Shown here piece by piece: positions 35,597 through 62,259 of a DNA stretch of 64,000 bases. This DNA comes from a virus. Taxonomy: Duplodnaviria > Caudoviricetes. Made by a program: the position numbers and the translations under genes. Location of the stretch: IMG/VR virus record IMGVR_UViG_3300015050_000842, positions 1-64,000 of that record; one strand, written 5' to 3'. The notes beneath the pieces were generated by a model that worked only from the letters and a program-made list of their open reading frames with translations, made no database searches and had not been told where the DNA came from. The first letter of the stretch is position 1; each line of letters starts with the position of its first letter.

Positions 35597-35703
35597 TATA
35601 TTTGCTTTGTAATAAATAGATGCCGACACATCTAATGTAAAATATTTTACCCATTTAGGGGGAGGCTGTCGGGCTGAACCCAAAATGGGTTTTTTATTTT
35701 AAT
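35597..35703 (+). promoter_or_regulatory. Promoter plus structured leader (copy 1) of an HNH gene
   Basis: TATATTTG 35597-35604; CCGACA (35623-28) pairs with TGTCGG (35667-72); ACCCATTT (35649-56) pairs with AAATGGGT (35683-90); then a T-tract and ATG. Confidence 0.6.
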
Positions 35704-36405
35704 ATGGTAAAATTATGTAAGGAATGTGGTGAATTAAAACCACACGAATTATTCTATAAAAATCGTACAATGAGTGACGGTCTAACCTATGACTGTAAAT
35801 CATGTAGATTAATAACAAAGAGAAAAAAGATAGCTGAAAACACAAAAGAAGTAATAGATATTGACGGAGAAATTTGGAAAGACGTAGTTGGTTTTGAAGG
35901 TTTTTGCATGGTAAGTAATATTGGCAGAGTAAAGTCATTAGATAGGTATTATGACTCAAAACGTGGTTGCACAAGAAAGGTTAGTTCCCACCTATATGGA
36001 ATTAGAGTAGAAAAAGGATATGATAGGGTTGGTATATGTGATGAATTTGGGCAGAAATCTTATGCAGTACACAGATTAGTCGCAGAAGCGTTTATACCAA
36101 ATCCTGATAATAAACCACACGTAAATCATATAAATTCAATTAGAAATGATAATAGGGTTGAAAATTTGGAGTGGGTTAATCATAGTGAAAACGTAACTCA
36201 CGGTCTTGTATCGAAGTCATCTAAAACATCTATTTATTCGGGAGTTAGCTTCATCTCAAAGGAGAAAAAATGGAAAGCGTCTATAACTATCAATAAAAAA
36301 CAGGTTTACTTAGGAATATTTGGTTCTGAAACTGATGCAGCGTTAGCATATAAACAGTCGTTTATTAAGAATGGATTGGTAAATAGATATGTTGTATTGA
36401 TTTAA
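35704..36405 (+). CDS. NUMOD4-HNH-AP2 homing endonuclease, antisense between terL and portal
   Basis: CxxC Zn knuckle; EIWKDVVGFEG..VSNIGRVKS; HRLVAEAFIPNP...VNH...DNRVENLEW; AP2-like YSGV...WKASI...YLG.F. Confidence 0.92.
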   Translation: MVKLCKECGELKPHELFYKNRTMSDGLTYDCKSCRLITKRKKIAENTKEVIDIDGEIWKDVVGFEGFCMVSNIGRVKSLDRYYDSKRGCTRKVSSHLYGIRVEKGYDRVGICDEFGQKSYAVHRLVAEAFIPNPDNKPHVNHINSIRNDNRVENLEWVNHSENVTHGLVSKSSKTSIYSGVSFISKEKKWKASITINKKQVYLGIFGSETDAALAYKQSFIKNGLVNRYVVLI

Positions 36406-36412
36406 CAGTTTT

Positions 36413-38599
36413 TCAATAGTAAGTTTTGGACTTTCTTACCTGCATGAAATTCATAATCTTTGGCTCGACAACCTTTTTTCTAAAGTCTGATTTCAAACCC
36501 ATTAACGAATAACCCCATGCCATTGCTGCATCGTAGTCATTTCTATCATTGATATTAAAGCCTAACATATCCTTCAATAACCGCAAAAACTTAATCTTGT
36601 GCATATTATTTAACGCATACTCCACCATTTCTGTTAGGTGCTGTTCCCTTGCTTCTTTATCTTGTGGGGCGCAACCGTACACTTCTGAATTGTTTGCACG
36701 TTTGGTAGGAATTAAGTACCCGTGTAGCTTTGGTGCGGTTTCAGGACTTGCAAGACGATTGTTTTGGTGCATGGCGTGGTCTATCCAATCGGTAGGGGCA
36801 CGTTCACCAAGCATTCTAACTCCGTAGTATTCTAATCCCCAATATACCTGATTGAAAAACTCTTGCTTGGTTTCAGGTCTGCCTAAGAACATAGCACATG
36901 GATAGTCTGAATTTTCAGGGTCTAAACTGTCGTACCTCTTATGAATAATACAACAAGCATCCGAACCCTTGTCTACTGTTTGTCGTGAGTTGGCAAAAGG
37001 GTCAAGCCCTGCGCTTCCAAAAGCTGTATTGTCGGGACATTTAATACTTCCTTGATAAACAGACTTGTTGTGGTTCTCAACAAATTCAAGTATGTACCAC
37101 ATTCCCGAATTGCTGTCCTCGAAGTAAACCTCTCCGTTATCTCTTTTCTTAAATCTGCCTCGTCTGCCATTCTCTGTTAGTCCTGTTCCCTCTAACGAAG
37201 TTTCAATACGTTCTATCTGGTTGGTTAAGTCCTCTAAATTAAAGTGGCATAGGTTGTTTACGCCTCTAAATACCTCTATCCACTCGAAAGGAAACTGTCT
37301 TATTTCCTCCGATAATAGTTCGGGGTCATTTGCTAATATGTTACGTTGTTCTTGCAGATAGTCCTTTGCACCTATTCGTGGATTAGGACACGCTTTCTTG
37401 CCTGTTGTTGGGTCACGAACTTCTTCTAAGTATGCTATTTGTTCGGGAGTTGGATTCTCAATGACAGAGTTCCCATACTTGTCAATATAACCGTAATATC
37501 CTCTATACCCCTCTAAGAAAAATCGTTTTAGACGTGACGGGGTTTGACCAATACTGCTTAGTTTTCCTTGCTGATTAGAGGATAGCCAAATCTTTTTAAA
37601 GTTGTCACCTCCTGCATCACCCTTGTTTACGCTACTAAATAGTGATACGTGACCAATTACTGATGCACCGACCACTAAAGTCTTGCTAATCTTTGAAAAA
37701 CATAGCTGAACATCTGCCTCCTGCCATTTTGCTCCCTCGTCAATGGTTATTTTTCTTGCCCTACGACCATCGTATGCGTTCTCTGCCGTTGGCAACCAAT
37801 TCACACGATTGTTCTTGCCCTTATCGTTTGATACTGTTCTGTTATTGGCAGATATTCTTGCTTTTGGTTTAGCGATATGAAACTCTGTTTCGGCTACCTT
37901 TGCTAATTCAGGAACAAGAAATTCGGGTAACTTCTCCAATCCGTTCTTAACCATCAAGTACATTTCCTTAGCATCCGTACCCGTCTTAGATACAATACCC
38001 TGTAAGGTATTTTCCTCTATTATTGCGATTAAAAGGCTTATAGATGCCGACATTGACGACAAACCAACCCTTCGACCTTTTATTCCACAGTCACCTAACG
38101 TGAAGTCGTCATCCTCACATAGCTTGTAGAATATAAAGTATTCAAGTGAAGTGTCTTTGTAGATAGGGTATATGCCCTCTTGGAGCATAAAATATTGATG
38201 GAAAAAATAACAATACTTATTGAAATAGGTCGGAACTCCGTTTATGAATACCCAATCTCCATTATGTAGCTTGTAAATTTCTTGAATGAACCACTCCATT
38301 TGACCACGTTGCGGTGCTTGATGCCAAAGAGTGCCTAATTTTGGGTCGGTATTCCAATCCCATTGTTCGTATGTAGTATCTCTGTACCAAACTTGGTCGT
38401 GTTTCGGTAAGTGGTGTCCTCTGATTTTATGGAACGGAGGTATTGGTGGTGTTTCGTATAAAACGTGCTGAACGTATGATTTGATAGTATTCCCTATCTT
38501 CCACTTTTTTTCTTGTGTGACAGGTGGCACGTATTCTATGCCTAATGCTAATGCCTCTGCTCTTGCTCTTTTCTCTCTTTTCTTAGGGTTACCTGCCAT
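36413..38599 (-). CDS. terL: Terminase large subunit
   Basis: KGRRVGLSS Walker A, AYDG..ITIDE Walker B, AGLDPF and DYDAAMA nuclease acidic motifs. Confidence 0.92.
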   Translation of the reverse strand: MAGNPKKREKRARAEALALGIEYVPPVTQEKKWKIGNTIKSYVQHVLYETPPIPPFHKIRGHHLPKHDQVWYRDTTYEQWDWNTDPKLGTLWHQAPQRGQMEWFIQEIYKLHNGDWVFINGVPTYFNKYCYFFHQYFMLQEGIYPIYKDTSLEYFIFYKLCEDDDFTLGDCGIKGRRVGLSSMSASISLLIAIIEENTLQGIVSKTGTDAKEMYLMVKNGLEKLPEFLVPELAKVAETEFHIAKPKARISANNRTVSNDKGKNNRVNWLPTAENAYDGRRARKITIDEGAKWQEADVQLCFSKISKTLVVGASVIGHVSLFSSVNKGDAGGDNFKKIWLSSNQQGKLSSIGQTPSRLKRFFLEGYRGYYGYIDKYGNSVIENPTPEQIAYLEEVRDPTTGKKACPNPRIGAKDYLQEQRNILANDPELLSEEIRQFPFEWIEVFRGVNNLCHFNLEDLTNQIERIETSLEGTGLTENGRRGRFKKRDNGEVYFEDSNSGMWYILEFVENHNKSVYQGSIKCPDNTAFGSAGLDPFANSRQTVDKGSDACCIIHKRYDSLDPENSDYPCAMFLGRPETKQEFFNQVYWGLEYYGVRMLGERAPTDWIDHAMHQNNRLASPETAPKLHGYLIPTKRANNSEVYGCAPQDKEAREQHLTEMVEYALNNMHKIKFLRLLKDMLGFNINDRNDYDAAMAWGYSLMGLKSDFRKKVVEPKIMNFMQVRKSKTYY

Positions 38600-38951
38600 T
38601 CAATGTTCCCGATTCCTTTAGCTTCTTTGATACTTGTTCAAATATATTGGTGTCTGAAAAACCCTCCGTATGTTCTTCTTTCTCTTTTGATTTTGGCTTT
38701 GTCTTTTCTACCCTTGCTGATATGGTCTTACTCTTATTATCCTCACCCATCAAAGTTACGATTTTAACAAACATTTTATCGTCTGCCAATACCGCACCTG
38801 TTTCCCTTATTGCACCCAACTCCTTTGCTATCTGTTGCTTCATTAGTTGTAACTCATTCGTCAGGTCGTTTGAACCGAATAAAGCACCCTCTAAATACGT
38901 TACGTAGTCAGACTGCTCTTGTGTTAAACTGTCAAGGTTTGGTCTTTTCAT
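38589..38951 (-). CDS. Hypothetical protein upstream of terL (possible small terminase subunit)
   Basis: Position only; overlaps the terL start. Confidence 0.4.
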   Translation of the reverse strand: MKRPNLDSLTQEQSDYVTYLEGALFGSNDLTNELQLMKQQIAKELGAIRETGAVLADDKMFVKIVTLMGEDNKSKTISARVEKTKPKSKEKEEHTEGFSDTNIFEQVSKKLKESGTLNGR

Positions 38952-39559
38952 ACTTGCTCAAATTTAGCTGCGATTTCGTTATGAAACAACTTGATGTAAT
39001 CTCTACCATTGTAATTCAGGTAGTATTGGTGGTCGTCATCCGTACATACTATATCTCCAACACTTATCTCCTTGTACTTTCTATTCTTTGGAACGTGCAG
39101 TATTTTGATTTTTAATGTTTCCTTTTTCTTGTCTGCCGAAGTGAGGTATATTCCGCTATCGGTCTTGACTGCATCTGTGTAGACTTGTTCCCCTAAGTAC
39201 ATATCGTCTGCCATTTCGATTTCTTCCCCTACAATCTTAAAAAATACGTGGTAAGGAAATACTAAGGAATATTCTTGTTCGTCTATCTGAATGACTTCTT
39301 CGGCTTCCTTTGCCATGTAATGAAAGAATAACCTATCACCTTTTTTATATCCTAAGTTTGGTTGGTCAAAGCATACTGTTCCGATTTGTGGATGCACCTC
39401 TTTCATGTTGAAGTTTGTCATCCACTTAGTTGTTTCACCGCCATAATCTCCGTGTTCGGTGTGTTCCCACATATCGGGGCGTATTAATTCAACACCACCT
39501 ACTTCAATGATTTTGTTGTGCCTATCGTCAAACTGTACTATGAGTCTATTGCTATACAT
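38948..39559 (-). CDS. Tandem GroES/Cpn10-like co-chaperonin
   Basis: Two GroES-like units, e.g. KTDSGIYLT...ISVGDIV...NGRDYIKL. Confidence 0.65.
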   Translation of the reverse strand: MYSNRLIVQFDDRHNKIIEVGGVELIRPDMWEHTEHGDYGGETTKWMTNFNMKEVHPQIGTVCFDQPNLGYKKGDRLFFHYMAKEAEEVIQIDEQEYSLVFPYHVFFKIVGEEIEMADDMYLGEQVYTDAVKTDSGIYLTSADKKKETLKIKILHVPKNRKYKEISVGDIVCTDDDHQYYLNYNGRDYIKLFHNEIAAKFEQV

Positions 39560-40538
39560 CGAGTAATCTATCTATTCTTAATTGGTTTATCTTGCTTAGT
39601 AAACGGTTATTCAAAATCCAATCCCACGCTTCATTATTCATTATTTCAAGTGAGTTAAACTCATCTTCATACGCTTTAAACGTATCTTTTACTCCTTCTG
39701 AAATATCAGCAACAAATCCATGCTTAAATTCGGGCAGAGTAGCGTTACCGAAGAACGCTGAACCTGCATACGTGGCTTCGAGTAATGAGATATTACTTTT
39801 ACAGACATTAAACACATTGGTAATCAATGGGAAGAACGCAATATTCGCATTTAGTTCGTGATACTCTTTATAAAACTGCATTAAGGTTACAGGGTCGGTG
39901 TATTCGTGATTCTTGCCTGTTCTTTCCTCGATGTGCTTAAAACGACTACCCTGAAACCTGAAAGTCCAATCCTGATTGTCGTTAATCATATAAACTATGT
40001 CGTTGATATTTTGGTACATATCCGCTTCGTGAGATGCGCCACCCCTATAAGACATAATCTTTGTCTTGTGGTTAAACGGTTTCTTATTCTCTATCGGAAA
40101 TACTGTATCATTGTGGCAATTTGGGATTATGTGAATGTTTTTGTTGTACGGCTTGTATATGTGCTTAATCGCAGGTGTTGTTACCCAAACTTCATCAGCT
40201 AAATGAATAGCCATTTTGATATTTGACTTCTGTTCTGCTAAGGTTATACTTGCGTTGTTGTGGAAAGGTACGTTCAATAGGTCATCGTCATAGTCTAAGA
40301 TTACACGAATGTTCATATCCTTTGCTAACTTGATTAACTCGATATGAGGTTCGTGTGTCGGTCTTTGGAATATAAATGTATCAAAACCAATTAAACTGTT
40401 CCATCCGTATTCATTCTTTGAATTGTATAGGTTGGTTACGCTTATGTCAGGACTGTTTAGAAAGTTAAGTACACCGTTTGTCCTGTAAAATGCCGAAGCA
40501 TTGGTTTCAAGCATACTTAAATAACACACTTTTTTCAT
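39552..40538 (-). CDS. Glycosyltransferase (GT-B/GT4-like)
   Basis: AFYRTNG, FIFQRP, ILDYDDDLL, ADEVWVTTP, YRGG.SH, FN.CKSNISLLE. Confidence 0.8.
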   Translation of the reverse strand: MKKVCYLSMLETNASAFYRTNGVLNFLNSPDISVTNLYNSKNEYGWNSLIGFDTFIFQRPTHEPHIELIKLAKDMNIRVILDYDDDLLNVPFHNNASITLAEQKSNIKMAIHLADEVWVTTPAIKHIYKPYNKNIHIIPNCHNDTVFPIENKKPFNHKTKIMSYRGGASHEADMYQNINDIVYMINDNQDWTFRFQGSRFKHIEERTGKNHEYTDPVTLMQFYKEYHELNANIAFFPLITNVFNVCKSNISLLEATYAGSAFFGNATLPEFKHGFVADISEGVKDTFKAYEDEFNSLEIMNNEAWDWILNNRLLSKINQLRIDRLLDV

Positions 40539-40675
40539 TTATGTAGTTTTATTGAACGATTTTTATATAGTTGTTTCAAGTCCTTATATGCGTTATTTGT
40601 GAAACGATTATCCTCAAAGTTATCGACTTGATAAATTGTTATCTTTCGTAGTTTACGAGCCTTCTTACCATTCAT
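40535..40675 (-). CDS. Small basic hypothetical protein (MNGKKARKLRK)
   Basis: ATG at 40675 just after the upstream stop. Confidence 0.45.
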   Translation of the reverse strand: MNGKKARKLRKITIYQVDNFEDNRFTNNAYKDLKQLYKNRSIKLHK

Positions 40676-40676
40676 G

Positions 40677-41060
40677 CTACTTAAATAAAATCCAATATGT
40701 TGTGAATAATTGTACGTAGTGTAATACTTGGTCAAACCCTACGCTAATAAAGAAGTTATGGCTATTCCCCGATGCCCAAAGTTTACTATTTAGTCTGCTT
40801 GTGTAGTAATCTGTTATCGTGTGAGCAACAAAAGTTATTAACAGGAATAAAGATATATTTTCAATAATCCCATGTACTGAAAACATAGAATACCAACTAT
40901 ATAGAGCACCAACGATAGCAAAAATATAAGTGTAAGTAAATGTATGACCCAATAAATCATCCCAATTCTTACTTTTGCCTTTAGCTTGTTTATCAGTTTG
41001 TAACACAAAGTCTGCAAACCAATGAATAATTAGTATTGCGAATATTTCTGTTAAATTCAT
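40677..41060 (-). CDS. DUF3307 family membrane protein
   Basis: HWFADFVLQT...H...HTITD...GFDQVLH pattern with TM segments. Confidence 0.8.
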   Translation of the reverse strand: MNLTEIFAILIIHWFADFVLQTDKQAKGKSKNWDDLLGHTFTYTYIFAIVGALYSWYSMFSVHGIIENISLFLLITFVAHTITDYYTSRLNSKLWASGNSHNFFISVGFDQVLHYVQLFTTYWILFK

Positions 41061-41061
41061 A

Positions 41062-44686: not shown

Positions 44687-45264
44687 CTAAGTATTGTGTT
44701 TGTTATGTTTAATCTATTGATAACTACGCCCTGTTTTTTTAGGTTTTCGGTTACGTAAAATTCAGTATGAAAAATTTTGCCATCTCTGAATAGGTTTCCA
44801 TGTTCCAAATATACGCTATAATACTTTTTCATTACCTTGTAACTGCCGAAAGCAAATTGGTCATTAACACCTCCACAATGGTCGTTACCGTAAGGAATGT
44901 AAATGTTTGTGTCGTCAATATTGTAGTCATCAAAGTTTATCTTTCCGCTTAATACTATGTCTGTTCTTGACTTTACATACACATCGTAGTTGTGTGGTAC
45001 TAAACAGAATCCTATGAATAGATTGTGCCACGCCTGTAAAGTGTTATCTGTGCAGGTGACAGGGTTTTTATTGCTATTGTACCAATCCAACGGTTCGGTG
45101 TAGTACGTTCCTTGTATCTTGTTAAACTGCTTGTACGGTGTTTCAGGTTCATCGTATGTGTAGAAATAGGTTTCTGTGGTCGGGGTGTAGAAATTATCAA
45201 TTTGATTCTGTCTACAAGCGTTCCACGTTCTTAGATGCCCTGAATATAATACCGCTACGTTCAT
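44683..45264 (-). CDS. Glycan-modification/glycosyltransferase-like protein
   Basis: VAVLYSGHLRT...YDVYVKSRTDI...NDQFAFGS pattern recurrent in glycan clusters. Confidence 0.55.
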   Translation of the reverse strand: MNVAVLYSGHLRTWNACRQNQIDNFYTPTTETYFYTYDEPETPYKQFNKIQGTYYTEPLDWYNSNKNPVTCTDNTLQAWHNLFIGFCLVPHNYDVYVKSRTDIVLSGKINFDDYNIDDTNIYIPYGNDHCGGVNDQFAFGSYKVMKKYYSVYLEHGNLFRDGKIFHTEFYVTENLKKQGVVINRLNITNTILR

Positions 45265-46064
45265 GCCTCAAACGGGTTATAGTAAATATCTCGTACTCCT
45301 TTTTTGTAGTCCTCTGCTATCTCTGAAAACTCGGCTATTGTTCTTCCTGCTTCTCTGATTTTCTCTTTAACGTGTTCTCCCTCTCCGTTATCTAAGTGAA
45401 CAATAGGAATTGTTGGTAGGAAAGCATTTTCAAATCCTGCAAGTTCGGAACGTAGTGACATCAATGAATCATCCCAAGCGTAAGTGGAAATTTGCCACAT
45501 GTAGCCGACTTTATCTAATAGTTTAGGGCTAAACATAGTGCAAGTGCCTATAATATCTTTGGAGATTTCTAAAACAACCCAACTATCACCTCTTTCGTGA
45601 GGTAAAAACTTTAATTGTGTTCTGTATGCAGGATTTTCATGTTCAGGGTGTTGAATTAACTCTGTTCGCTTTAATCCTAATATTCCTAAGTTCGTGTATC
45701 TCTCAAAACATTCTTCCATTTCCTCTACCCAACCTACCCTACCTATCGTTACGTCTGAATCAATTTTAATTACGTATTGATTAGGTTTTCTTGTACGTAT
45801 GCCTAAGTTTACTGCCTCTGCCGTACCTAAGTTCTTACCGTTATACGATATAGTTAGGTGGTTTGAAGGGAACATTGATTCAAAATGATATGTAAACTCT
45901 TTATAGAAATCAATCATTTCTTGACAAGAGCCGTTATCGCTAATGAAAAGTTCGCTTGGCAAAAAATCTACGGTGTCAAGTAAACCAAACAAAGTCTTTT
46001 TTGCGTACTCTAACCGATTATTTGTTTCGGTTGCGTATGACGCCATAATCACTAAAGCACACAT
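45261..46064 (-). CDS. Glycosyltransferase family 2
   Basis: FISDNGS, NLGTAEAVN, VIKIDSDV, IIGTCTMF, WDD. Confidence 0.85.
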   Translation of the reverse strand: MCALVIMASYATETNNRLEYAKKTLFGLLDTVDFLPSELFISDNGSCQEMIDFYKEFTYHFESMFPSNHLTISYNGKNLGTAEAVNLGIRTRKPNQYVIKIDSDVTIGRVGWVEEMEECFERYTNLGILGLKRTELIQHPEHENPAYRTQLKFLPHERGDSWVVLEISKDIIGTCTMFSPKLLDKVGYMWQISTYAWDDSLMSLRSELAGFENAFLPTIPIVHLDNGEGEHVKEKIREAGRTIAEFSEIAEDYKKGVRDIYYNPFEA

Positions 46065-46198
46065 AGATTACAAATAAAATACCCCAATACCAAGCGATGC
46101 GGAAACATACAGCAACTCGGAAGTTGTGCCTGATATTGGGGATGGATTAAATGTGTCAAGGGTTTTGCTGTTATATGTTTTTCCGCTAACCAAAGTTG
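46065..46198 (-). promoter_or_regulatory. Structured leader (copy 2) in front of the glycosylation operon
   Basis: CAACTTTG box; 46165-86 pairs with 46099-115 (17 bp with bulges); 46131-41 pairs with 46082-92 (11 bp); then a T-rich tract and ATG. Confidence 0.6.
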
Positions 46199-46247
46199 AG
46201 AAAAGTTTTTTATATATGCAAGTAAAAAAAGCACTTTCCTTTTAATT

Positions 46248-46613: not shown

Positions 46614-46628
46614 ATTATAATCGGTTGG

Positions 46629-47331: not shown

Positions 47332-47916
47332 TTAATACCTCCATTTAAAACCTGCGCAAAAACTTGTTACTCCTCTTGCACAAGCAGATATTGCGCCAAA
47401 ACTTCTATTTACACTTCTTGCTGCTTCAACAACAGAGCCAAATTCTTGAACAAAAACATCATCCATTGTGTATTTTTTTACTGATTTAGATGTAGGGTTT
47501 TCGCCACCGTATTTTCTTTTGTAAACAGATGGCTTTCTACCAAGAACTCTGTATGCGTGTAAATTATTTTCTTGTGATGTACACCATTCAAGGTTTTCGA
47601 CTCTATTGTCTGTCTTAATTCCGTTCTTGTGATTAACAAATGGTTTATTTTCAGGGTTTGGAATAAACGCTTCTGCAACTAACCTATGAATAACAGTAAT
47701 AACAATTCTATCTAAATCATGCAAAGATATTTTCTGATAAGTATTTGTAACTCCTTTTACCAAATGACCACTTCTATATTTTTGTCGAGATTTCCTATTA
47801 TTCATACCCAACCATTTCCCGTGTCTATAAACCCTTCCTAAAGAACTAACCATATAAAAACCACTCCACCCTAATACATCTCTCCATTCCTCTCCTTCTA
47901 AAATTTCAATATCCAT
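47332..47916 (-). CDS. NUMOD4-HNH-NUMOD1 homing endonuclease (true start MDIEILEGEEW at 47916)
   Basis: EEWRDVLGWSGFYMVSSLGRV; HRLVAEAFIPNP..VNHKNG.KTDNRVENLEW; F.SVVEAARS...ISAC. Confidence 0.92.
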   Translation of the reverse strand: MDIEILEGEEWRDVLGWSGFYMVSSLGRVYRHGKWLGMNNRKSRQKYRSGHLVKGVTNTYQKISLHDLDRIVITVIHRLVAEAFIPNPENKPFVNHKNGIKTDNRVENLEWCTSQENNLHAYRVLGRKPSVYKRKYGGENPTSKSVKKYTMDDVFVQEFGSVVEAARSVNRSFGAISACARGVTSFCAGFKWRY

Positions 47917-48030
47917 AATAAAAAACCCCACAAATACAAAGGCTGTCCAGTCTGCCGAGGTAGGCATAAGGCAATGTAGATGCAGGGATATTTTTAAATT
48001 TCTTCATAACTGAACAGCAAAACAAATTTA
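47917..48030 (-). promoter_or_regulatory. Promoter plus structured leader (copy 3) of an HNH gene
   Basis: TAAATTTG 48023-30; 48010-18 pairs with 47942-50; 47975-87 pairs with 47926-38; then T6 and ATG. Confidence 0.65.
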
Positions 48031-51284: not shown

Positions 51285-51464
51285 TTAATCCTTTGGTCTA
51301 TCAAATCTGTTTAATAATGTTACACCGAATTTCTCGTAGGTTGGTAATCTCTTTTCGTTAATCCAATTATATATCGTTCTCTTTGTTTTATCAACAAGAA
51401 CTGCATATTCATCTATGGTAACGAGATTTTGAATTGGTGGTAATTTTTCTTTCGTTGTTTCCAT
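51285..51464 (-). CDS. 59-aa HTH DNA-binding protein (HTH_17/excisionase-like)
   Basis: METTKEKLPPIQNLVTIDEYAVLVDKTKRTIYNWINEKRLPTYEKFG...; LVT..E.A......TIYNW...RL motif. Not in the ORF track. Confidence 0.75.
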   Translation of the reverse strand: METTKEKLPPIQNLVTIDEYAVLVDKTKRTIYNWINEKRLPTYEKFGVTLLNRFDRPKD

Positions 51465-51468
51465 ATAT

Positions 51469-51476
51469 CAAATATA
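51469..51476 (-). promoter_or_regulatory. -7 promoter TATATTTG, near-leaderless, for the HTH/replication operon
   Basis: Box ends 4 nt before the ATG at 51464. Confidence 0.6.
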
Positions 51477-51512
51477 TATACTATTTCACAAATAATGAAA
51501 TTTATTTTCAAA

Positions 51513-51544
51513 TAAAAAAGCCCCATGTCTTTCGACACAGGGCT
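51513..51544 (-). terminator. Rho-independent terminator
   Basis: AGCCCTGTGTC-GAAA-GACATGGGGCT followed by T6 (GNRA loop). Confidence 0.9.
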
Positions 51545-51602
51545 AAACGAAATGAAAAACGAAAGACTAACACAAAGAGCCTGATGAAAAGCGATTGCTC
51601 TA
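51513..51602 (-). ncRNA. Putative ~90-nt small RNA antisense to early-gene start codons
   Basis: Bounded by TACCTTTG (51603-10) and the terminator; 5' hairpin; body complementary to several translation starts. Confidence 0.55.
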
Positions 51603-51627
51603 CAAAGGTATTACTTATTTTTAGATT

Positions 51628-52308: not shown

Positions 52309-52318
52309 GTGGTTGTGG

Positions 52319-54203: not shown

Positions 54204-54291
54204 TTCGCTTAGTATTAAATTTATTTTTTAAATATTCTATATCCAACATACACTCCTAAAAAGTATGCAAATAATGTTATTAGTAAACCTT

Positions 54292-54932: not shown

Positions 54933-54940
54933 TATATTAA

Positions 54941-55126
54941 TTATTTAACCCTTCGTTTTGTTACTATTGTTGCTTCACTTTCACACTCAAAGTGATTAGT
55001 AAAATACTCTTTAATAGCTTCATATACTGTTTCACCATCCATTGTGTACCTTACAAACTCTGTGTCTTTAAATGAAATAAAGTTTATTTCAACCTCATCT
55101 GTCATCTTAATCGTTAATTTCCTCAT
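54941..55126 (-). CDS. Hypothetical protein
   Basis: ATGA-coupled to the RepL-like gene. Confidence 0.55.
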   Translation of the reverse strand: MRKLTIKMTDEVEINFISFKDTEFVRYTMDGETVYEAIKEYFTNHFECESEATIVTKRRVK

Positions 55127-55623
55127 AGACCCAATTTCTTATTTGTGATTATCTTAAAATTATCTACTCCATTGTTATCAAATATCAGTTTAGCCACAAT
55201 CCTTTCAATTCGTTTCTTTTTCTCCCCATTAAAGAAATACTTCGGATGAACCAAGAACGCTGACCTGCTAGACTGCTTTATAATTAAACCTGACGAACTT
55301 AACTCCCCCCACGCTTGTTTAATTGTTTGGTCGGCATACTTAACCTTATCATTCGTAATAAGTGCTATAAACTCATTGAAAGCAATCCTGCTATCCTCTG
55401 TGTGGTAAACAATATTCTTATCATTCATTTCCTCACCTAACCAGTCCATTAAATTCCTTGCACAAGGACTTAGTCCTGCCAATAAATACAATGAGTTGTG
55501 AAAACGCTTCGTATGACTTAACTCAATCTTTTCCTCATTAATAACCTGAATCTTAATACCCTCATTCTCATCAAACTTCCACCCTGATATATAACTCAAT
55601 ATTCCTGTATCTTTCTTGCCCAT
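55123..55623 (-). CDS. RepL-like winged-helix replication protein
   Basis: LSPCARNLMDWL...EL...GLI.....FLVHPKYFFNG resembles the RepL Y.VNP.FF.G motif. Confidence 0.65.
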   Translation of the reverse strand: MGKKDTGILSYISGWKFDENEGIKIQVINEEKIELSHTKRFHNSLYLLAGLSPCARNLMDWLGEEMNDKNIVYHTEDSRIAFNEFIALITNDKVKYADQTIKQAWGELSSSGLIIKQSSRSAFLVHPKYFFNGEKKKRIERIVAKLIFDNNGVDNFKIITNKKLGL

Positions 55624-55637
55624 AGTTTATAAAAATC

Positions 55638-55764
55638 GTATACCAATAGTATCTACACAACAAACTTACAGTATTAATTTAAAACTACCAAAAGTATTTT
55701 TAAAAAGATACTAACACTTCCACAGTATACCTACACGATACTGACCAGTATACCCACAGTATAC
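55638..55764. repeat. Cluster of GTATAC-cored repeats (iteron/operator-like)
   Basis: GTATAC at 55638; CAGTATAC at 55723, 55746 and 55757; CCACAGTATAC twice. Confidence 0.6.
55661..55668 (-). promoter_or_regulatory. -7 promoter TAAGTTTG heading the leftward arm
   Basis: Exact TAnnTTTG 37 nt before the ATG at 55623. Confidence 0.55.
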
Positions 55765-55769
55765 TAACT

Positions 55770-56600
55770 TTCACTTAACTTCTTGATAATCAATGAAAAG
55801 TCTAAAATAATCGCTAAGACACTTGAGTGAACTAATCCTTACTGTTACATACTTTACAAGGTTACTTAATTACAATCAAAAAATTTCGCCAAAAAATTAA
55901 GGCATCAAACTATTCAAGTAATCATTACTACAATAATACAATTCGCTATATACCAATCGGGGTGGCTTGGTAAAGTGTTTGTAATTAATAACAGATACTA
56001 CGTGTGTTTATAACCGTGATGTTGTTGTTTGATAGTCTATGTTCATAGGGGGTGGACTATCCCCCCTGTCACCACTCTCTCCAATCACAAAATAAAGTCG
56101 TTTCCTCACATGGGGGTACTATCAAACGTAAAAGTTATCCAGCTATCTCAATCGTTTATCAGTCATCCATTATAAGTAAATCAAATCAGTTACCCTGAAT
56201 GATTGTTATGCTTGTTAAGTGGTAACGGTAACAGGTTAGTGAATGGTATTGTCTTGATTAGGTTATGCAATGGAATTGGATTTGATATGTTGTGTTTTAT
56301 GTGTGTATGTAAAGGAGAGAGGGATAAACAACCAACACAACACAAGTCCGCGTATGATATAGCCAAAAAACTATAATTAATCAATACCAAAGTAATAACT
56401 ATTAAAAACCCTGTTTAATGGTATTTAAACATAGAAAACGATTATTTTGTTAGTGTTGATATATCATACTATACAATGTATAAAGTGTCTTAAAACGTCT
56501 TAAAATAGGCTTAAATTAAATGTACTGTTTTTGGTTATGTATTATTATTTAGACTTATTATAAATTGCAAATATATTATGTATTAATTAAAATACTACTT
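55770..56600. other. Long non-coding divergence region (candidate origin or packaging terminus)
   Basis: No credible ORF; strand switch; G/C-run hairpin at 56047-56067. Confidence 0.5.
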
Positions 56601-56604
56601 ACTA

Positions 56605-56871
56605 TTGTATAAGCAATTAAATAAACACTTAAATATTATGAAAACACACACTTATTTTGAAATTCAAGACGGTTCAGGATGTATTGGTAATGGTAGGGGT
56701 ATTTACAGTTTTAAAACACTTGAAGAAGCTGTAAGGGTAGCAACAGAATTTAAAAGCAATCCACGTAGTCACAATGAAAAGATGTCTGATGAAAATGTAA
56801 AGTTTTGGAGCAGTAGAACATACACTATTGTAAAAAAGATAATTCAGACGGAAGAAATTCAAACTATATAA
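56605..56871 (+). CDS. Early hypothetical protein (ATG at 56638)
   Basis: First plus-strand gene; preceded by a TAAACACTTAAATAT block. Confidence 0.6.
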   Translation: MYKQLNKHLNIMKTHTYFEIQDGSGCIGNGRGIYSFKTLEEAVRVATEFKSNPRSHNEKMSDENVKFWSSRTYTIVKKIIQTEEIQTI

Positions 56872-56947
56872 CCAATCAACAGGGGTTGAAATATACCCCT
56901 CTTTATATTTATATCAGTAATTAATTAAACACTTAAATATAAACATT

Positions 56948-57133
56948 ATGACTACAATAGAATCAATTCAAAGTAACATTCATTACTATAAAACTATGTT
57001 AATAAGACTACGTAATATAGTACCGAATGACCCATTGGAGGAGATTAATAAAAATGAGGGTATTGAGTATTATATAAATACATTATCCGAATTAAAGGAA
57101 TCATTAAAAAACGCGATTAATCAAACATTATGA
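56948..57133 (+). CDS. Early hypothetical protein
   Basis: Same upstream block. Confidence 0.6.
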   Translation: MTTIESIQSNIHYYKTMLIRLRNIVPNDPLEEINKNEGIEYYINTLSELKESLKNAINQTL

Positions 57134-57354
57134 AAAATCTATTGGAAAGTAACGGATTTATAAAAGTTAATAATAAAAATGAATGGTTTATCAATTTTCA
57201 GGGCAGAACATATACCGTAATTAAAAACGGTGGTAAATGGTGGGTAATAATTAATAAAAATGGAATAGAAATAAAAATCAATCAAACAGGATTTACAAAA
57301 TTTAAGCATATCCAAAACTTATTAGAATCAATTACACTTAATAAAATTAACTAA
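57130..57354 (+). CDS. Early hypothetical protein
   Basis: ATGA-coupled. Confidence 0.6.
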   Translation: MKNLLESNGFIKVNNKNEWFINFQGRTYTVIKNGGKWWVIINKNGIEIKINQTGFTKFKHIQNLLESITLNKIN

Positions 57355-57403
57355 ATTTTAAACACTTAATGTCAGGGCAGACAATAACAGCCCCATAACG
57401 ATT

Positions 57404-57718
57404 ATGAAAATACAAAACTATAATGCCGAACAATTAACAGGAATACTAATTGACAGGCTTAAAGAGATTGAACAAAGGGAACGGATAGTATTAAAATTTC
57501 CTTTCAGTCATGCTATAAATAGAATAGAGATATATTGCTCCGAAACAGAGCCAAAGGGTAACGGATATTTTGGTACTACATTTAACGGTATTGTTTCTTT
57601 GCAGGTATTTAATGACTATGGAAATAAGCCAGTTGAAAAATCTTCATACTCCTACCAAAATGAGATGCTAAATTTCATACCAAAGTTAGTACAAAACATT
57701 TATTCCAAACTTAACTAA
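57404..57718 (+). CDS. Early hypothetical protein
   Basis: Packed ORF. Confidence 0.6.
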   Translation: MKIQNYNAEQLTGILIDRLKEIEQRERIVLKFPFSHAINRIEIYCSETEPKGNGYFGTTFNGIVSLQVFNDYGNKPVEKSSYSYQNEMLNFIPKLVQNIYSKLN

Positions 57719-57743
57719 TCAATTCACTTAAACAGATATAACA

Positions 57744-58232
57744 ATGAAACTGTCAGGTAAAAAACTTGAATTAATACATATAACAAGACAAAGTCTATTT
57801 GATTGCGATTATGTAGGATGTTGCGATAATTGTGGTAAGATTATAGTCAATATAGCCACCGTAAAAGACGAAAACGGCAAAACTTATGAGATAGGACTAG
57901 ACTGTAAAAAGACATTGATAGACAAGCCTGTAATTGATAAAATGTTGCTTAGTACTGATTTTATGACAAAGTACAATGTTAAGGAATACAAGCAAATGAC
58001 ATCAGAAGCGGAGAAGTTTTTAAAGTTTTGTTCTTATCCTGATATTGATATTCAGATAAGTAATAGCGAAGTTGTTATTTATGACAATAAGCCAAATACT
58101 CAATTTCCTGATAGCGGATTAATTGGCAATACTATCTATATGCAAAACATAGGCTATTTGAATAAAATAGGACTAAAGAATTTTATCATTAACCTATTAA
58201 ATACTAATAAAGCAAAATTATCTAAATATTAA
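57744..58232 (+). CDS. Early protein with a Zn-binding motif
   Basis: CCDNCGK.I.N.A.V......Y.IG.DC pattern. Confidence 0.65.
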   Translation: MKLSGKKLELIHITRQSLFDCDYVGCCDNCGKIIVNIATVKDENGKTYEIGLDCKKTLIDKPVIDKMLLSTDFMTKYNVKEYKQMTSEAEKFLKFCSYPDIDIQISNSEVVIYDNKPNTQFPDSGLIGNTIYMQNIGYLNKIGLKNFIINLLNTNKAKLSKY

Positions 58233-58282
58233 TTAAACCATTTAAGACCGTTCAGGTGCAGAACTAAAAAGACACAAAGAAA

Positions 58283-58519
58283 ATGAAAAACGACATTTAT
58301 TTAAACTGCAAGGCTCAAATTAAAAAAGAAGCTATTTTATTAAAGCGTGATAATCCTAAAGATAAAGCATATATACGCTATCAATTAAACACTCTTTGCG
58401 ACGAACTTATAAAGCAAATTAATTGGTATGTAATGAAGGACAAAATAACTGAAAAACAAGCTAAATTATACGCTCTTTGGTTATCATCATTTACAGCAAA
58501 CATGCACCCTAAAAACTAA
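58283..58519 (+). CDS. Early hypothetical protein
   Basis: Packed ORF. Confidence 0.6.
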   Translation: MKNDIYLNCKAQIKKEAILLKRDNPKDKAYIRYQLNTLCDELIKQINWYVMKDKITEKQAKLYALWLSSFTANMHPKN

Positions 58520-58523
58520 TAAC

Positions 58524-58775
58524 ATGAAAAATTCACTAAAACATTTTAATACGTCTTTAAAGCAATTGCAACAAGACGAAAAAGACGGTAAGCAATTAAG
58601 CCAAAATCATTATGGGGACTATTTAATGATTGAACAGTCAGAAGATAAAGAGCATTACAGGGTTTGGCTTAATCATCCTGAAAATGTAAAACAAGGATGT
58701 TCAAAATATCAAATTGAATATTGCGGTAAGGGTAATAATTGGAATTGGAAAACAATTAAACAAGGTAATAATTAA
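58524..58775 (+). CDS. Early hypothetical protein
   Basis: Packed ORF. Confidence 0.6.
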   Translation: MKNSLKHFNTSLKQLQQDEKDGKQLSQNHYGDYLMIEQSEDKEHYRVWLNHPENVKQGCSKYQIEYCGKGNNWNWKTIKQGNN

Positions 58776-58779
58776 AGCT

Positions 58780-59502
58780 ATGAAAAAGATTATAAAAGAA
58801 AATGTAAAAATTACGGATGCCTACGAAATGCCAAATGCCTACATTATAGATAAAGACGGTTTATGTTTTGTCTTTGCTTGTGTTGGTATTATATCAAGTT
58901 GTAAATATCAAAAAGCAGAAGATTATTTAAACCCTTTATGGCATAACAAATTCGTTTTGTCTATTCAATACGATTATAGAAGCGGAGATGATTTAAATTC
59001 CTTTAAATGGGTTAAGAATACGGGAACGTATGGAGAAACATTTTTCTGCGATACTTTGGAAGATGCAATTAAAAAGCATGAAGATTTTATAAACAGGACT
59101 TTTGAAAATTACAGGACATTTCACGGGGATAAAATAGAGCAGATTAATAAAGCAACTATTAAACAGGTCGCAAAATCTCAATCATTACATCATTACAGTA
59201 TGTTTCCAAATCTATTAGAGAGAAACGACATATATCTGCAAATTATCAAAAATAGCGGGGAGATGACAGAACTGAATAAATACATTGATAGATATAACAA
59301 CAACAGAGTTGCAGACGAAAAATACCTTAACAAGGTAAAAAACAGGTTTTTGTCAGACTTTGGGCAACCATTAGAACTATTTATACATAATTGGCATTTT
59401 TACATAACAGGGTTTATGAATAAATTCAACTTTAAAAATGTTGATGACCTAAACAAAAAGCAACAAGTAACAATCAGGAAAGTAATACACTTATATAATT
59501 AA
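58780..59502 (+). CDS. Early hypothetical protein (ATG at 58780)
   Basis: In-frame ATG 4 nt after the upstream stop. Confidence 0.6.
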   Translation: MKKIIKENVKITDAYEMPNAYIIDKDGLCFVFACVGIISSCKYQKAEDYLNPLWHNKFVLSIQYDYRSGDDLNSFKWVKNTGTYGETFFCDTLEDAIKKHEDFINRTFENYRTFHGDKIEQINKATIKQVAKSQSLHHYSMFPNLLERNDIYLQIIKNSGEMTELNKYIDRYNNNRVADEKYLNKVKNRFLSDFGQPLELFIHNWHFYITGFMNKFNFKNVDDLNKKQQVTIRKVIHLYN

Positions 59503-59522
59503 CCCCTAACCACAAAATAAAG

Positions 59523-59591
59523 CCATTACAGACACTTTAATATGTTTGTAATGGTAATTACTAACTTGCCCTTTATAATTGATTACAGGGC
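59523..59591 (+). promoter_or_regulatory. Two intergenic hairpins
   Basis: CCATTACAGAC/GTTTGTAATGG (59523-54) and GCCCT/AGGGC (59568-91). Confidence 0.45.
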
Positions 59592-59606
59592 TTAATTTTA
59601 AACGAA

Positions 59607-59852
59607 ATGAAACAACATAACCAGATAGGAAAGTACCCTAAAAAAGAGTTAGTGCTTGACGGCAAAAAGGGCAGAAACTTTGTAACCCCTAAAAATAAAA
59701 CATATCAGTTTGACTACGAAAAAATAGGTAATTCATATAATTTTATTATAATCTATATGGGTAAAAGAATGAGAATGAAAGAATCAGATTTTAACAAGCA
59801 TAATATTGATGATATTCTAATCTCAATAGAAAATTCACTTGCCATAAACTAA
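59607..59852 (+). CDS. Early hypothetical protein
   Basis: Packed ORF. Confidence 0.6.
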   Translation: MKQHNQIGKYPKKELVLDGKKGRNFVTPKNKTYQFDYEKIGNSYNFIIIYMGKRMRMKESDFNKHNIDDILISIENSLAIN

Positions 59853-59857
59853 ACACA

Positions 59858-60040
59858 ATGAAAACAGAACTTAAAAAAGCAATAGTTGATTTTATTTTTG
59901 AAAATGAAAAAGACTTTCAACTAATTAACAGAACTATCCAATATTTCAGGGAGTATATTTACAATAGTGAGGGAGATTATTTGATAGGCGGAGAAGAAGT
60001 AAAAGATTTTATAAAAGATGCTATAAAGTTTTTGCTATGA
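59858..60040 (+). CDS. Early hypothetical protein
   Basis: Packed ORF. Confidence 0.6.
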   Translation: MKTELKKAIVDFIFENEKDFQLINRTIQYFREYIYNSEGDYLIGGEEVKDFIKDAIKFLL

Positions 60041-60234
60041 CAGCACAACAAATAAAAGATGCAGTATTGCAAGGCAATAAGGTATTCTACGGACACAAAG
60101 GCTATGAAGTCATTACCGATAAGCATAATCAATGGTTTATAAGATATATTCCTAATGGGCATTGTATTGGATTAACGTGGCAAGACGGAACAACACTAAA
60201 CGGAGATGAACAAGATTTTTATATTGAAAACTAA
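60037..60234 (+). CDS. Early hypothetical protein (MT..QIK.AV..G.KV..HKGY.V type)
   Basis: ATGA-coupled; recurrent phage pattern. Confidence 0.65.
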   Translation: MTAQQIKDAVLQGNKVFYGHKGYEVITDKHNQWFIRYIPNGHCIGLTWQDGTTLNGDEQDFYIEN

Positions 60235-60246
60235 ACACTAAATAAG

Positions 60247-60489
60247 ATGAAAGCAACACAAAATCATATCCATAGCCTTGAAAGTATTTTATACCGATTG
60301 AAACAAGCAGAAAAGTATATTGAAAAGGATTGCATAGAAATTTGCCTAAAGGGAGATAATACAACTTTTTCCTATACCAATCGTAACGGAGATACATTAG
60401 GCACTCTTACAAAGTTTGTAGGCTCTGAATTAAACCAATTAAAAAACGCAATTAACGAATTAGAAAACTTAATTGAAACAAGCAAATGA
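60247..60489 (+). CDS. Early hypothetical protein
   Basis: Packed ORF. Confidence 0.6.
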   Translation: MKATQNHIHSLESILYRLKQAEKYIEKDCIEICLKGDNTTFSYTNRNGDTLGTLTKFVGSELNQLKNAINELENLIETSK

Positions 60490-60591
60490 AAACACTAACA
60501 CAAATTGATTGGCTGAAATGGATTTTAGCATCAATAACACTAACCTTTATTTTATCGGGTATTTATTCAGCATACTTAAACTTGTAAGGAG

Positions 60592-60864
60592 ATGATAGAA
60601 ATTAAAGGAATTAAATACGAAGAAATTCCACAACACCAACCGATGAGAATGAGTAAAACAGCTATGGAATTAATTGCTATGGCAAGTATGTTTTACACTC
60701 CATATATGGGTTATGGTAATGGAAATTCACAACCGAAAGAAAAATTAAAAATTGATATTGTTAAAGAGTTTGAATTAATTCAGGACAAAAAATCTAACCT
60801 TTCACGTTCTGAAAGAGAATGGGTAGTAAAAATATTTAATCAAAAATACAGGCAAGTAATATGA
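60592..60864 (+). CDS. Hypothetical protein
   Basis: DIVKEFELIQ.KKSNLSRSER..V motif typical of Bacteroidota phages. Confidence 0.65.
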   Translation: MIEIKGIKYEEIPQHQPMRMSKTAMELIAMASMFYTPYMGYGNGNSQPKEKLKIDIVKEFELIQDKKSNLSRSEREWVVKIFNQKYRQVI

Positions 60865-61181
60865 AAGAACTTGAAGAAAAACGCAAAGACGAAATTAAGA
60901 TTGTTTCGGAAAGGCAGATTGAAAAGCAATTAAAGTTTATCGGTAACATATTTGTAAGACCAAATCAGAAATGCTATGAATACAATACACTCACTAAAGA
61001 ACTGCAAATAGCCAAAACAGAATGTATAATCAATCCATTTGCAACAGGTAAGAAGATTGATATTTACAATGGTTGAACAATAGGAGAGAGCAAATTTGAA
61101 CAAAAGGTAATTACCAAAGATGACTGCCTGTATGTTGTAGCTATTAACAAAAGAAACGCAAAACGTAAATTAGGATTATGA
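60861..61181 (+). pseudogene. Hypothetical protein with an in-frame TGA at 61074-61076
   Basis: The frame stays open for 34 more codons (..KVITKDDCLYVVAINKRNAKRKLGL) and ends in an ATGA overlap with the next gene. Confidence 0.6.
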
Positions 61182-61396
61182 AACAAGCAAAAGAACTATT
61201 CACCGAATTAAAGAAACACTATTCAAGTACAGAGATATTTATTAAGCTATTCTCTGCCATTATGGGATGTGTTGGAGGTATTATGATACTCTTAGGAATA
61301 TGGAAATTCTTAGTAGATGTATTGGGAGATAATATTTTAAAATAATTTGATAGTATTAAAATAAATACTATATTTGATAAACGAAACGAGAATATA

Positions 61397-61699
61397 ATGA
61401 AACTTAACAAAGAAAATGCAAGAGCGTTTAACCAATCGTTAAAACTTGCGGTAAGTAACCAAACCCAACAAAAAGTAAGGGTAGAGATAATTAATTCATA
61501 TAAATTTCCTGATTGTTATGTTAGAGTTTATGCCCCAAATGGATTTTCAAACGAATTTAGATTAAGTGTTTTTGATGCTTTTGGTAATTCAAGAGATGGG
61601 CTACTAAATATGGATAATATTTCTTATGGAAATATTCAGAGCGGATTTATTTCTGGCAAAGTATTTCAATGGGAAAATCTTTTTAATCAAAATAACTAA
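61397..61699 (+). CDS. Hypothetical protein
   Basis: Packed ORF. Confidence 0.6.
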   Translation: MKLNKENARAFNQSLKLAVSNQTQQKVRVEIINSYKFPDCYVRVYAPNGFSNEFRLSVFDAFGNSRDGLLNMDNISYGNIQSGFISGKVFQWENLFNQNN

Positions 61700-61700
61700 C

Positions 61701-61871
61701 ATGAAAACGACCTACAAAGTAAAGCTAACACCTCACCCGATAATCATTCGGGTACAAGACAACGCCGAAGAAATAATCTTTGATAAGAAACACCTTAAAA
61801 TCAGTAAGGCAGAAAGAATTGTTGCTGATTTGAATTTAGGGGTAACGATTGATTTTGATAACTTAAACTAA
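61701..61871 (+). CDS. Hypothetical protein (ATG at 61701)
   Basis: In-frame ATG 1 nt after the upstream stop. Confidence 0.55.
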   Translation: MKTTYKVKLTPHPIIIRVQDNAEEIIFDKKHLKISKAERIVADLNLGVTIDFDNLN

Positions 61872-61876
61872 ACACA

Positions 61877-62047
61877 ATGAAAAGCGAACCACTAACAAAC
61901 GAAAAAGCTATTGAACTAATCAATGCTCAAATAAAAGACCTTGCATGGAATGTTGAATACCATGAGCAGAAACTTGCAGAGTACAGACTTAAACTGCAAT
62001 TAGCAGAGCAGAATCTTACAATCTATCTTAAACCCGAAACAGTATGA
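61877..62047 (+). CDS. 56-aa coiled-coil protein (MKSEPLTNEK...)
   Basis: Translated by hand; shares a 20-nt start block with the gene at 59858. Confidence 0.6.
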   Translation: MKSEPLTNEKAIELINAQIKDLAWNVEYHEQKLAEYRLKLQLAEQNLTIYLKPETV

Positions 62048-62112
62048 GAATCAATTTCACAATACAAGGCACTAAATACTCTTTAGATGCCGATGGCAGT
62101 CAGTATTGTTGA
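62044..62112 (+). pseudogene. Truncated 5' copy of the 62837 gene (MRINFTIQGTKYSLDADGSQYC*)
   Basis: 15 of the first 21 residues are identical to MKINFKIQGTPYYIDADGSCY; cut off where the HNH cassette begins. Confidence 0.75.
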
Positions 62113-62121
62113 ATAAATTAT

Positions 62122-62259
62122 TATATTTGTAACGCTTTGTACTTAACTCTTAAACACATGATTATTCATTCTTAAAAATATACCCTGACGGCTGGCGGAA
62201 CATTCCTCTCTATGAGAGTTAAGTTACAAAGCACGTTAGCCTGATGGGTTTTTAAAATC
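62122..62259 (+). promoter_or_regulatory. Promoter plus structured leader (copy 4) of an HNH gene
   Basis: TATATTTG 62122-29; 62134-50 pairs with 62215-32 (17 bp, 1 bulge); 62182-97 pairs with 62234-49 (tandem GA internal loop); then a T-tract and ATG. Confidence 0.7.

Follow-up and report, generated by a model that had tools for sequence, protein, structure and literature searches.

The 64,000-nucleotide (nt) stretch of viral DNA analysed here, which we call the window, covers the initial 64 kb of a phage genome of 73,893 bp that carries direct terminal repeats (IMG/VR record IMGVR_UViG_3300015050_000842; Duplodnaviria, Caudoviricetes). It contains four leaders of ca. 90-130 nt, in which a promoter box of the type TAnnTTTG is followed by two interleaved helices, A/A' and B/B', in the order A-B-A'-B' (Table 1). 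In all four copies B' closes with GGG, after which come a run of T and the ATG of the gene. The structure of these leaders is conserved by compensatory change without sequence identity. Three of them stand before genes for HNH endonucleases, as an earlier note on this DNA had supposed for the whole family, but the second one heads a gene for a GT2-like glycosyltransferase, which opens a long minus-strand operon extending to the large terminase gene (terL). The endonuclease gene behind copy 1 is antisense to both of its neighbours, terL and the portal gene. A primase-helicase and a giant protein of 2,470 amino acids (aa) are also encoded in the window, where genes are tightly packed and intergenic gaps of more than 100 nt number about seven.

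TAnnTTTG is the -7 box of sigma-A, the primary sigma factor of Bacteroidota, and elsewhere in this phage genome it is usually found 5-30 nt upstream of an ATG, as in ordinary promoters; the portal gene has its own such box (35570-35563, minus strand), divergent from that of copy 1. The box, assigned previously to every leader, is exact in copies 1, 3, and 4 and has one mismatch in copy 2 (CAACTTTG). It precedes the first helix (arm A) by 4-18 nt, which places arm A at or near the 5' end of the transcript. The canonical form of the leader is present in 35 cultured Flavobacterium phages, so the host of the phage studied here is most likely a member of the Flavobacteriia, in which translation initiation is not led by Shine-Dalgarno sequences.

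Table 1. Positions of the leaders, of their helices and of the genes around them (window coordinates unless stated otherwise).
Feature	Position	Strand	Details
Portal gene	33087-35543	-	
Copy 1 leader	35597-35703	+	Upstream of HNH gene
Copy 1 promoter box	35597-35604	+	Exact TAnnTTTG, Bacteroidota-type sigma-A -7
Copy 1 5' hairpin (H1)	35618-35633	+	5-bp stem; 6-nt loop is arm A (35623-35628)
Copy 1 predicted terminator hairpin	35649-35695	+	B 35649-35660; A' 35667-35672; B' 35679-35690; U-tract 35690-35695
Copy 1 gene	35704-36405	+	HNH_3 + NUMOD4 + AP2 homing-type endonuclease, 233 aa; ATG 35704
Large terminase gene (terL)	36413-38599	-	
Copy 2 gene	45261-46064	-	GT2-like glycosyltransferase, no nuclease
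Copy 2 leader	46065-46199	-	Box 46198-46191; interrupted U-tract 46081-46072; ATG 46064
Copy 2 helices		-	A 46186-46165 / A' 46115-46099; B 46141-46129 / B' 46094-46082
Copy 3 gene	47332-47916	-	HNH_3 + NUMOD4 endonuclease, 194 aa from ATG 47916
Copy 3 leader	47917-48030	-	Box 48030-48023 (exact); U-tract 47925-47920; ATG 47916
Copy 3 helices		-	A 48018-48009 / A' 47951-47942; B 47987-47981 + 47978-47975 / B' 47938-47935 + 47932-47926; small inner hairpin 47973-47953
Copy 4 leader	62122-62259	+	Box 62122-62129 (exact); U-tract 62249-62253; ATG 62260
Copy 4 helices		+	A 62134-62150 / A' 62215-62232; B 62183-62185 + 62190-62197 / B' 62234-62241 + 62246-62248, around a 4x4 internal loop
Copy 4 gene	62260-62853	+	HNH_3 + NUMOD4 endonuclease, 197 aa
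Fifth, partial copy	Genome 69384-69805 (L024:5384-5805)		Beyond the window; leader part 69401-69510

All four leaders that the earlier note had described, with their A-B-A'-B' order, were recovered by energy. We used a custom scorer that searches for the best pair of interleaved helices and sums their energies via ViennaRNA, and at each of the four copies this pair was stronger than in 150 out of 150 dinucleotide shuffles (z of -3.1, -5.9, -3.3, and -7.3 for copies 1-4). When the whole genome was scanned on both strands (5,902 scanning windows, mean interleaved-helix energy -7.4 kcal/mol), the top rank went to copy 4, ranks two and three both fell to copy 2, and copies 1 and 3 came near the 0.5th percentile, which puts the four sites in the top 0.5%. 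The support for copy 4 is purely energetic, and a pattern search aimed at its close relatives had no hits.

Relatives of the leaders were collected by two routes. In one, an alignment of the three HNH proteins led to 80 viral loci, and those with TAnnTTTG ca. 100 nt upstream of the gene have the same architecture with different helix sequences. The mean z was -4.1 over 22 leaders and +0.3 over 20 control regions upstream of box-less HNH genes, a comparison that is biased because the 22 leaders were picked by eye, though the effect is large. The other route, independent of HNH, was a pattern made of the box, AAATNCCC and GGGTTTTT with two gaps, and it retrieved 64 viral loci, nearly all of them 88-98 nt long. 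The leader family is defined here by two alignments (A3 and A4) and a covariance model (R1).

Alignment A3 contains 42 members of the main, copy 1-type subfamily; it was made with MAFFT from the sequences alone and scored against a structure derived from one member. The cells predicted to pair do so in 96.1% of cases, vs. 69.4% with partners shuffled, and the covariation score is 0.652, vs. 0.169 with partners shuffled (none of 500 shuffles reached 0.652) and 0.055-0.097 with partners slid. Five helices are supported: the 4-bp stem of a 5' hairpin (of which H1 in copy 1 is the homologue), the lower, middle and upper parts of a 3' hairpin, and a 7-bp loop-loop helix joining the 8-nt loop of the former to the 8-nt apical loop of the latter. 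The loop-loop helix is 99% paired and shows double changes at six of its seven pairs, in loops so variable that each column has three to four pair types. The positions fixed by the search pattern are other than those that covary, and RNAalifold gave independently the 5' hairpin, the terminator and a set of pairs between A-tract and U-tract.

In the copy 3 type (A4, 10 alignable members from a second pattern scan), all cells of the 10-bp helix A pair (100%), and eight of its 10 pairs show double changes; helix B scored poorly (73% paired), and in part of the rows MAFFT had moved the block of CCC over by one column. G-U exceeds A-C by far in the paired cells of both alignments (29 to 6 in A3, 18 to 1 in A4), which indicates that what folds is an RNA of the gene's strand. 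Eight relatives (among them L105-L111) keep the copy 2 leader before their GT2-like gene, with compensatory changes, and in a distant relative (G003:36167-36369) the same place is taken by a leader that shares the architecture but not the helix sequences. Model R1, built on the main subfamily with nested pairs only, scores copy 3 at 29.9 bits (E 0.043) and copy 1 at 31.3 bits, although the latter is a seed member. It misses copies 2 and 4 at E up to 10, both of which are without the 5' hairpin and have a long A helix that the model cannot represent. The earlier note had held that structure is kept here without sequence identity and had looked to covariation for proof; the double changes in A3 and A4, together with the comparison of 22 leaders, agree with it. 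Rfam gave chance-level hits only, both for the window at gathering thresholds and for the four sites at E up to 10, and had no match to the canonical relatives at E up to 1.

The combination of B/B' and U-tract, already thought to be terminator-like, has every sequence feature of an intrinsic terminator, with a G+C-rich stem base running directly into 4-9 U; the hairpin of copy 1 was also listed as terminator-like in the terminator search. The ATG lies 10-17 nt from the end of the stem in the four copies, and most of the 64 pattern hits have it 3-8 nt past the U5 run, so a terminated RNA would be without a start codon. The start codon and the bases just upstream of it are outside all covarying helices. 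The predicted terminator loops are unusually large (18-48 nt) because A' is housed in them, in copy 1 within a loop of 18 nt. We also considered a bidirectional terminator and rejected it, as the U-run of the reverse strand is weak in canonical members and the G-U pairs favour the sense strand. In copy 3 an in-frame ATG (47967) falls within the leader.

Arm A is presented in one of two ways. In copy 1 and the main subfamily it forms a small hairpin's loop, so that its contact with A' is of the kissing-loop type; in copies 2-4 it is single-stranded, A/A' has 10-19 bp and the fold is an H-type pseudoknot. The hairpin beside A in copy 1, once taken for a competitor of A/A', displays A in its loop and does not compete with it. 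The earlier note had offered either a pseudoknot or two mutually exclusive helices. The pseudoknotted or kissing fold is favoured, but exclusivity is not supported: all helices of the main subfamily covary and the linkers permit their coexistence, which makes a single fold the simpler description. The A/U-rich linker, with its 15-24 nt, could bridge the two hairpins if they stack coaxially, and even the shortest linkers around A' (0-2 nt, with a 7-bp A') satisfy the rule for deep-groove crossing. These lengths make the coexistence of all the helices sterically plausible. With pseudoknots disallowed, the best fold of copy 4 is A/A' alone. The spacer TAAAA(A)TAT of the earlier note is indeed present, as an A-rich linker or A-tract 5' of the terminator stem that RNAalifold pairs with the U-tract. 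TTAAAAATA is over-represented in the leaders (three of its six occurrences in the genome), and TAAAAATAT, considered as a second internal promoter or a protein site, was better accounted for by the A-tract and linker that lead into the terminator stem.

Two further observations concern the copies themselves. Inside the terminator stem of copy 4, 62186-62189 and 62242-62245 form a symmetric 4x4 internal loop, UGAN opposite UGAU, also found in most rows of A3 (columns about 70-73 with 90-93); tandem sheared G-A pairs could arise in it, and it might be bound by a protein or a metal. The whole-genome scan for interleaved helices found, besides, the fifth and partial copy, which has a TATTTTTG box, a 13-bp A/A' hairpin plus a further 6 bp, a short U-run, and a 15-nt A-rich motif in common with copy 4. 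It is followed by about 400 nt of DNA free of open reading frames (ORFs) and with a G+C content above that of its surroundings, which may correspond to a longer non-coding RNA. A search of the fifth-copy region in Rfam had no match, and no homologue of the ORF-free stretch was found among five related contigs.

The leaders are mobile together with the genes behind them. In three relatives with terL 82-93% identical (L003-L005), the copy 1 region from ca. 35575 to 36404 is absent and terL and portal are separated by only 50-70 nt, so that box, leader and antisense HNH gene represent one insertion of ca. 830 bp. Along similar lines, the copy 3 region (ca. 48036 to 47290) is absent in four relatives (L105, L106, L109, and L110), in which the flanking genes are 55 nt apart; as these nuclease-free relatives are also without promoter and leader, the cassette is one unit. 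A leader nearly identical to copy 3 is found in L241, yet in front of a GIY-YIG gene. The portable unit foreseen in the earlier note is thus real.

Fifty-one of the 64 pattern loci have a downstream ORF of at least 50 aa, and homing-type nucleases, of four or more families, account for 36 of them: NUMOD4-HNH (18), GIY-YIG-like (nine; Pfam confirmed one, with NUMOD3), other PHROG "HNH endonuclease" families (eight) and endonuclease VII-like (one). The others are ResIII/DEAD helicases (seven), Ant (one), replication-initiator-like (one) or unknown (six). The cultured Flavobacterium phage mumin6-1 (L236; vB_FspS_mumin6-1, MN812220) carries one leader upstream of a NUMOD4 endonuclease and another (12701-12821) upstream of gp037 and a helicase gene, 450 nt past the nuclease cassette. 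A host regulatory element was considered and rejected, since 596 Gb of bacterial genomes gave 42 hits, scattered among taxa and varied in length, vs. 64 tightly sized viral ones, and the element is therefore phage-specific. No match to copy 1 was found among GenBank phages by megablast and blastn, ARAGORN detected no tRNA or tmRNA, and our literature search found no description of this leader family. A link to the abundant non-coding RNAs of the crAss-like phage phi14:2 was discarded, as the scanned phi14:2 genome has no such leader.

We give about an even chance to the possibility that the leader is a promoter-proximal attenuator and insulator acting in cis. Each site would be a self-contained expression module, in which a host sigma-A promoter is followed at once by the leader RNA, and the first transcribed bases (arm A) would pair with the terminator loop (A') to give one kissing-loop or H-type pseudoknot fold. 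Most transcripts, whether started at the module's own promoter or read in from upstream, would end at the U-tract as a compact small RNA, and a set fraction would pass the terminator and be translated. The contact between the 5' end and the loop would scaffold a large and weak terminator loop, so that the same hairpin folds in any genomic context. The outcome would be a low expression, independent of context, suited to a mobile nuclease gene; homing-endonuclease cassettes of several unrelated nuclease families take the module along on moving, and some of the phage's own operons have it too. Termination, its efficiency and the role of A/A' are what we infer here from the sequence features. The fact that T-even homing endonucleases are likewise restrained by terminators and hairpins (PMC2988022, PMC3014915) speaks for an attenuator. 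That the leader limits the expression of toxic endonucleases, as proposed before, is plausible but not the whole story, with the same architecture on a glycosyltransferase operon and on helicase genes. Two other early proposals find no support in our tests: a discrimination between own-promoter and read-through transcripts, as arm A is in both, and a guide-like role, as the paired sequences are internal and different in each copy.

Several facts weigh against an attenuator of this kind. The leader also heads the GT2 operon extending to terL, and helicase genes, which should need real expression, and there a strong constitutive terminator would come at a cost. The mumin6-1 cassette is co-oriented with the downstream phage genes, as are copies 3 and 4, which would entail polarity, and the U-tract of copy 2 is interrupted. 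In addition, a plain hairpin would suffice, other terminators in this genome having loops of 4-6 nt; the strongly conserved A/A' hints therefore at an extra function that simple attenuation explains weakly.

The use of the leader before genes that must be expressed keeps alive a regulated alternative, possible although rather unlikely in our view, in which termination is the default and a factor acting in trans permits read-through at a set time. This factor could be an early phage antiterminator, a structure-specific protein or a small ligand, and the modules would form one temporal class (middle or late). A promoter of consensus strength for the host enzyme would need such a delay or gate, and T-even endonucleases are in fact confined to middle or late times (PMC2988022). 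However, we identified no candidate antiterminator gene, other late genes (portal, capsid) carry plain promoters, and the paired loop sequences differ in nearly every copy, which makes a ligand pocket built from the loops unlikely. In a variant of this timer, A/A' would itself oppose the completion of the terminator, as in the guanidine-IV riboswitch, where the full terminator is impeded once the loops of the 5' and terminator hairpins kiss (PMC11611296). The pseudoknot-free fold of copy 4 would fit, but the A/U-rich linker lets kissing complex and full terminator coexist, unlike in guanidine-IV.

It is also conceivable, though unlikely, that the product of interest is the terminated RNA itself (ca. 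85-130 nt), a compact and nuclease-resistant molecule with both ends in helices that would act in trans or bind a protein, for instance restraining the nuclease like a type III antitoxin RNA or serving as decoy for a host factor. The succession of promoter, structured RNA, terminator and gene for a toxic protein is that of type III toxin-antitoxin systems, the RNA would begin no more than a few bases from a helix and finish at the terminator, and the partial fifth copy lacks any ORF for about 400 nt downstream. On the other hand, tandem repeats are absent, and the leader serves HNH, GIY-YIG, endonuclease VII-like, helicase and glycosyltransferase genes alike, which speaks against a specific RNA-protein pairing. 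Nor is any single-stranded sequence outside the A/U-rich linkers conserved enough to be a pairing seed.

More speculative, and to our minds distinctly unlikely, is that A/A' works as a programmable "address", a code of 6-19 bp proper to each cassette whose making or breaking would decide termination; a structure-specific protein of phage or host, or an RNA from other copies, could then gate the modules separately. If this were true, the leaders would make up a novel class of transcription switch, kissing-loop in type and ligand-free, which mobile nuclease genes take from phage to phage.

We find it improbable that the fold mainly serves the read-through mRNA, either as a guard against decay that depends on the 5' end or by controlling ribosome access in a non-Shine-Dalgarno host. 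A tight spacing between stem and ATG has been conserved, the 5' end lies in a helix, and RNA hairpins at the translation start do regulate T-even endonuclease genes (PMC3014915, PMC2988022). Here, however, the start codon and the bases before it are free of the covarying helices, and a U-run straight after a G+C-rich stem is a signature of termination, needless for control of stability or translation. Finally, short interleaved helices are common in any 125-nt window, but chance inverted repeats in AT-rich intergenic DNA have practically no probability left, being refuted by the covariation and also by the shuffles, the genome ranking and the comparison of 22 leaders.

Some other features were observed along the way. 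Between the minus- and plus-strand gene blocks of the window there is a divergent intergenic region of ca. 1 kb (55624-56604), with four copies of an 11-nt repeat (55720-55764) and, near 56050-56110, G-rich and C-rich segments that pair strongly. This region is a candidate for an origin or for early control. The gap at 51305-51627 looks like a small-RNA unit, with two minus-strand TAnnTTTG boxes (51610 and 51476) and a strong canonical terminator (51543-51520). In four related contigs (L014-L017) the terL match is split at about residue 288-290 by an insertion of ca. 1 kb, for which an intron, an intein and a nuclease cassette are candidates. A different leader of ca. 100 nt precedes related HNH genes in L067 and L093-L103. 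It has two hairpins, a GGGA/UCCC closing helix and a U-run, and one hairpin loop, GCUAAC, is complementary to the GUUAGC directly before the AUG, which suggests a pairing between loop and start site.

Free-standing homing endonucleases are among the commonest selfish genes of phages and, to our knowledge, the way in which they are expressed harmlessly is known in detail only for T4-like phages. The leader module has no counterpart in Rfam, and its presence in cultured Flavobacterium phages opens it to bench experiments. Should the contact with the terminator loop control termination, this would be a simple intramolecular kissing-loop regulator, and the module could serve as a portable and orthogonal expression part for Bacteroidota. 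New in the window are the long-helix pseudoknot variants beside the kissing variant, the conserved use of the leader without a nuclease (the GT2 operon), two clean cassette indels, and a leader that is nearly unchanged between HNH and GIY-YIG genes.

Several known RNAs are reminiscent of this family. The RNA I/RNA II contact of ColE1 is intermolecular, involves antisense transcripts and controls the priming of replication; it resembles the leaders in its 7-bp loop-loop helix between hairpins with loops of about 7-8 nt, but here the contact is intramolecular, within one sense transcript. Late control in lambda uses the PR' promoter, a short 6S RNA, the tR' terminator and Q-dependent read-through. 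Both designs have a constitutive promoter, a terminator within about 100-200 nt, a short RNA by default and genes that need read-through; they differ in that no Q-like factor or site is known here and that the lambda leader has no pairing between 5' end and terminator loop. The toxin of type III toxin-antitoxin systems (ToxIN) is an RNase, and it processes antitoxin RNAs that consist of tandem repeats. The order of promoter, pseudoknotted RNA, terminator and toxic-protein gene is the same, with the ToxIN terminator setting the ratio of RNA to message, but the leaders have a single unit, and their proteins are DNA nucleases of several folds or no nucleases at all. We did not assign the leaders to the type III antitoxin RNAs, as Tandem Repeats Finder detected no array at any of the four leaders. 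A ribozyme like that of hepatitis delta virus has the same topology and was rejected too, because copy 1, with 6 nt from B to A' and 6 nt from A' to B', has no room for P3/P4 and Rfam gave no match.

Close in form is the guanidine-IV riboswitch (mepA motif), in which the loops of a 5' hairpin and a terminator hairpin also kiss upstream of a U-tract. Its loops are conserved and form the ligand site, and its short linker makes kissing loop and full terminator exclusive (PMC11611296; bioRxiv 2020.10.21.349134), whereas in the leaders the loops vary and covary and the linker has 15-24 nt. The gene context of guanidine-IV, a guanidine exporter, is different as well. We rejected this identity on the grounds of the variable loop positions and the lack of an Rfam match.

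A parallel in function would be the T-even phages, in which the selfish nuclease genes of a lytic phage are likewise restrained by RNA structure at the 5' end. T4 mobE and segF have terminators at their 5' end, with ca. 30% termination reported for mobE, and RNA hairpins are found at I-TevI/II/III, segB and Aeh1 mobE (PMC2988022, PMC3014915); as would be the case here, the terminator lowers the amount of transcript. The T-even hairpins hide the ribosome-binding site and contain a late promoter, while in the leaders the promoter is upstream of the fold and the ATG outside it. A translational hairpin of the I-TevI type was rejected, since the ATG is 10-17 nt past the last paired base and the sole box is upstream of arm A. 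What sets the leaders apart from the T-even systems is the joining of their 5' end to the terminator loop through pairs that covary, and the fact that one homologous leader is common to unrelated nuclease families and travels with them.

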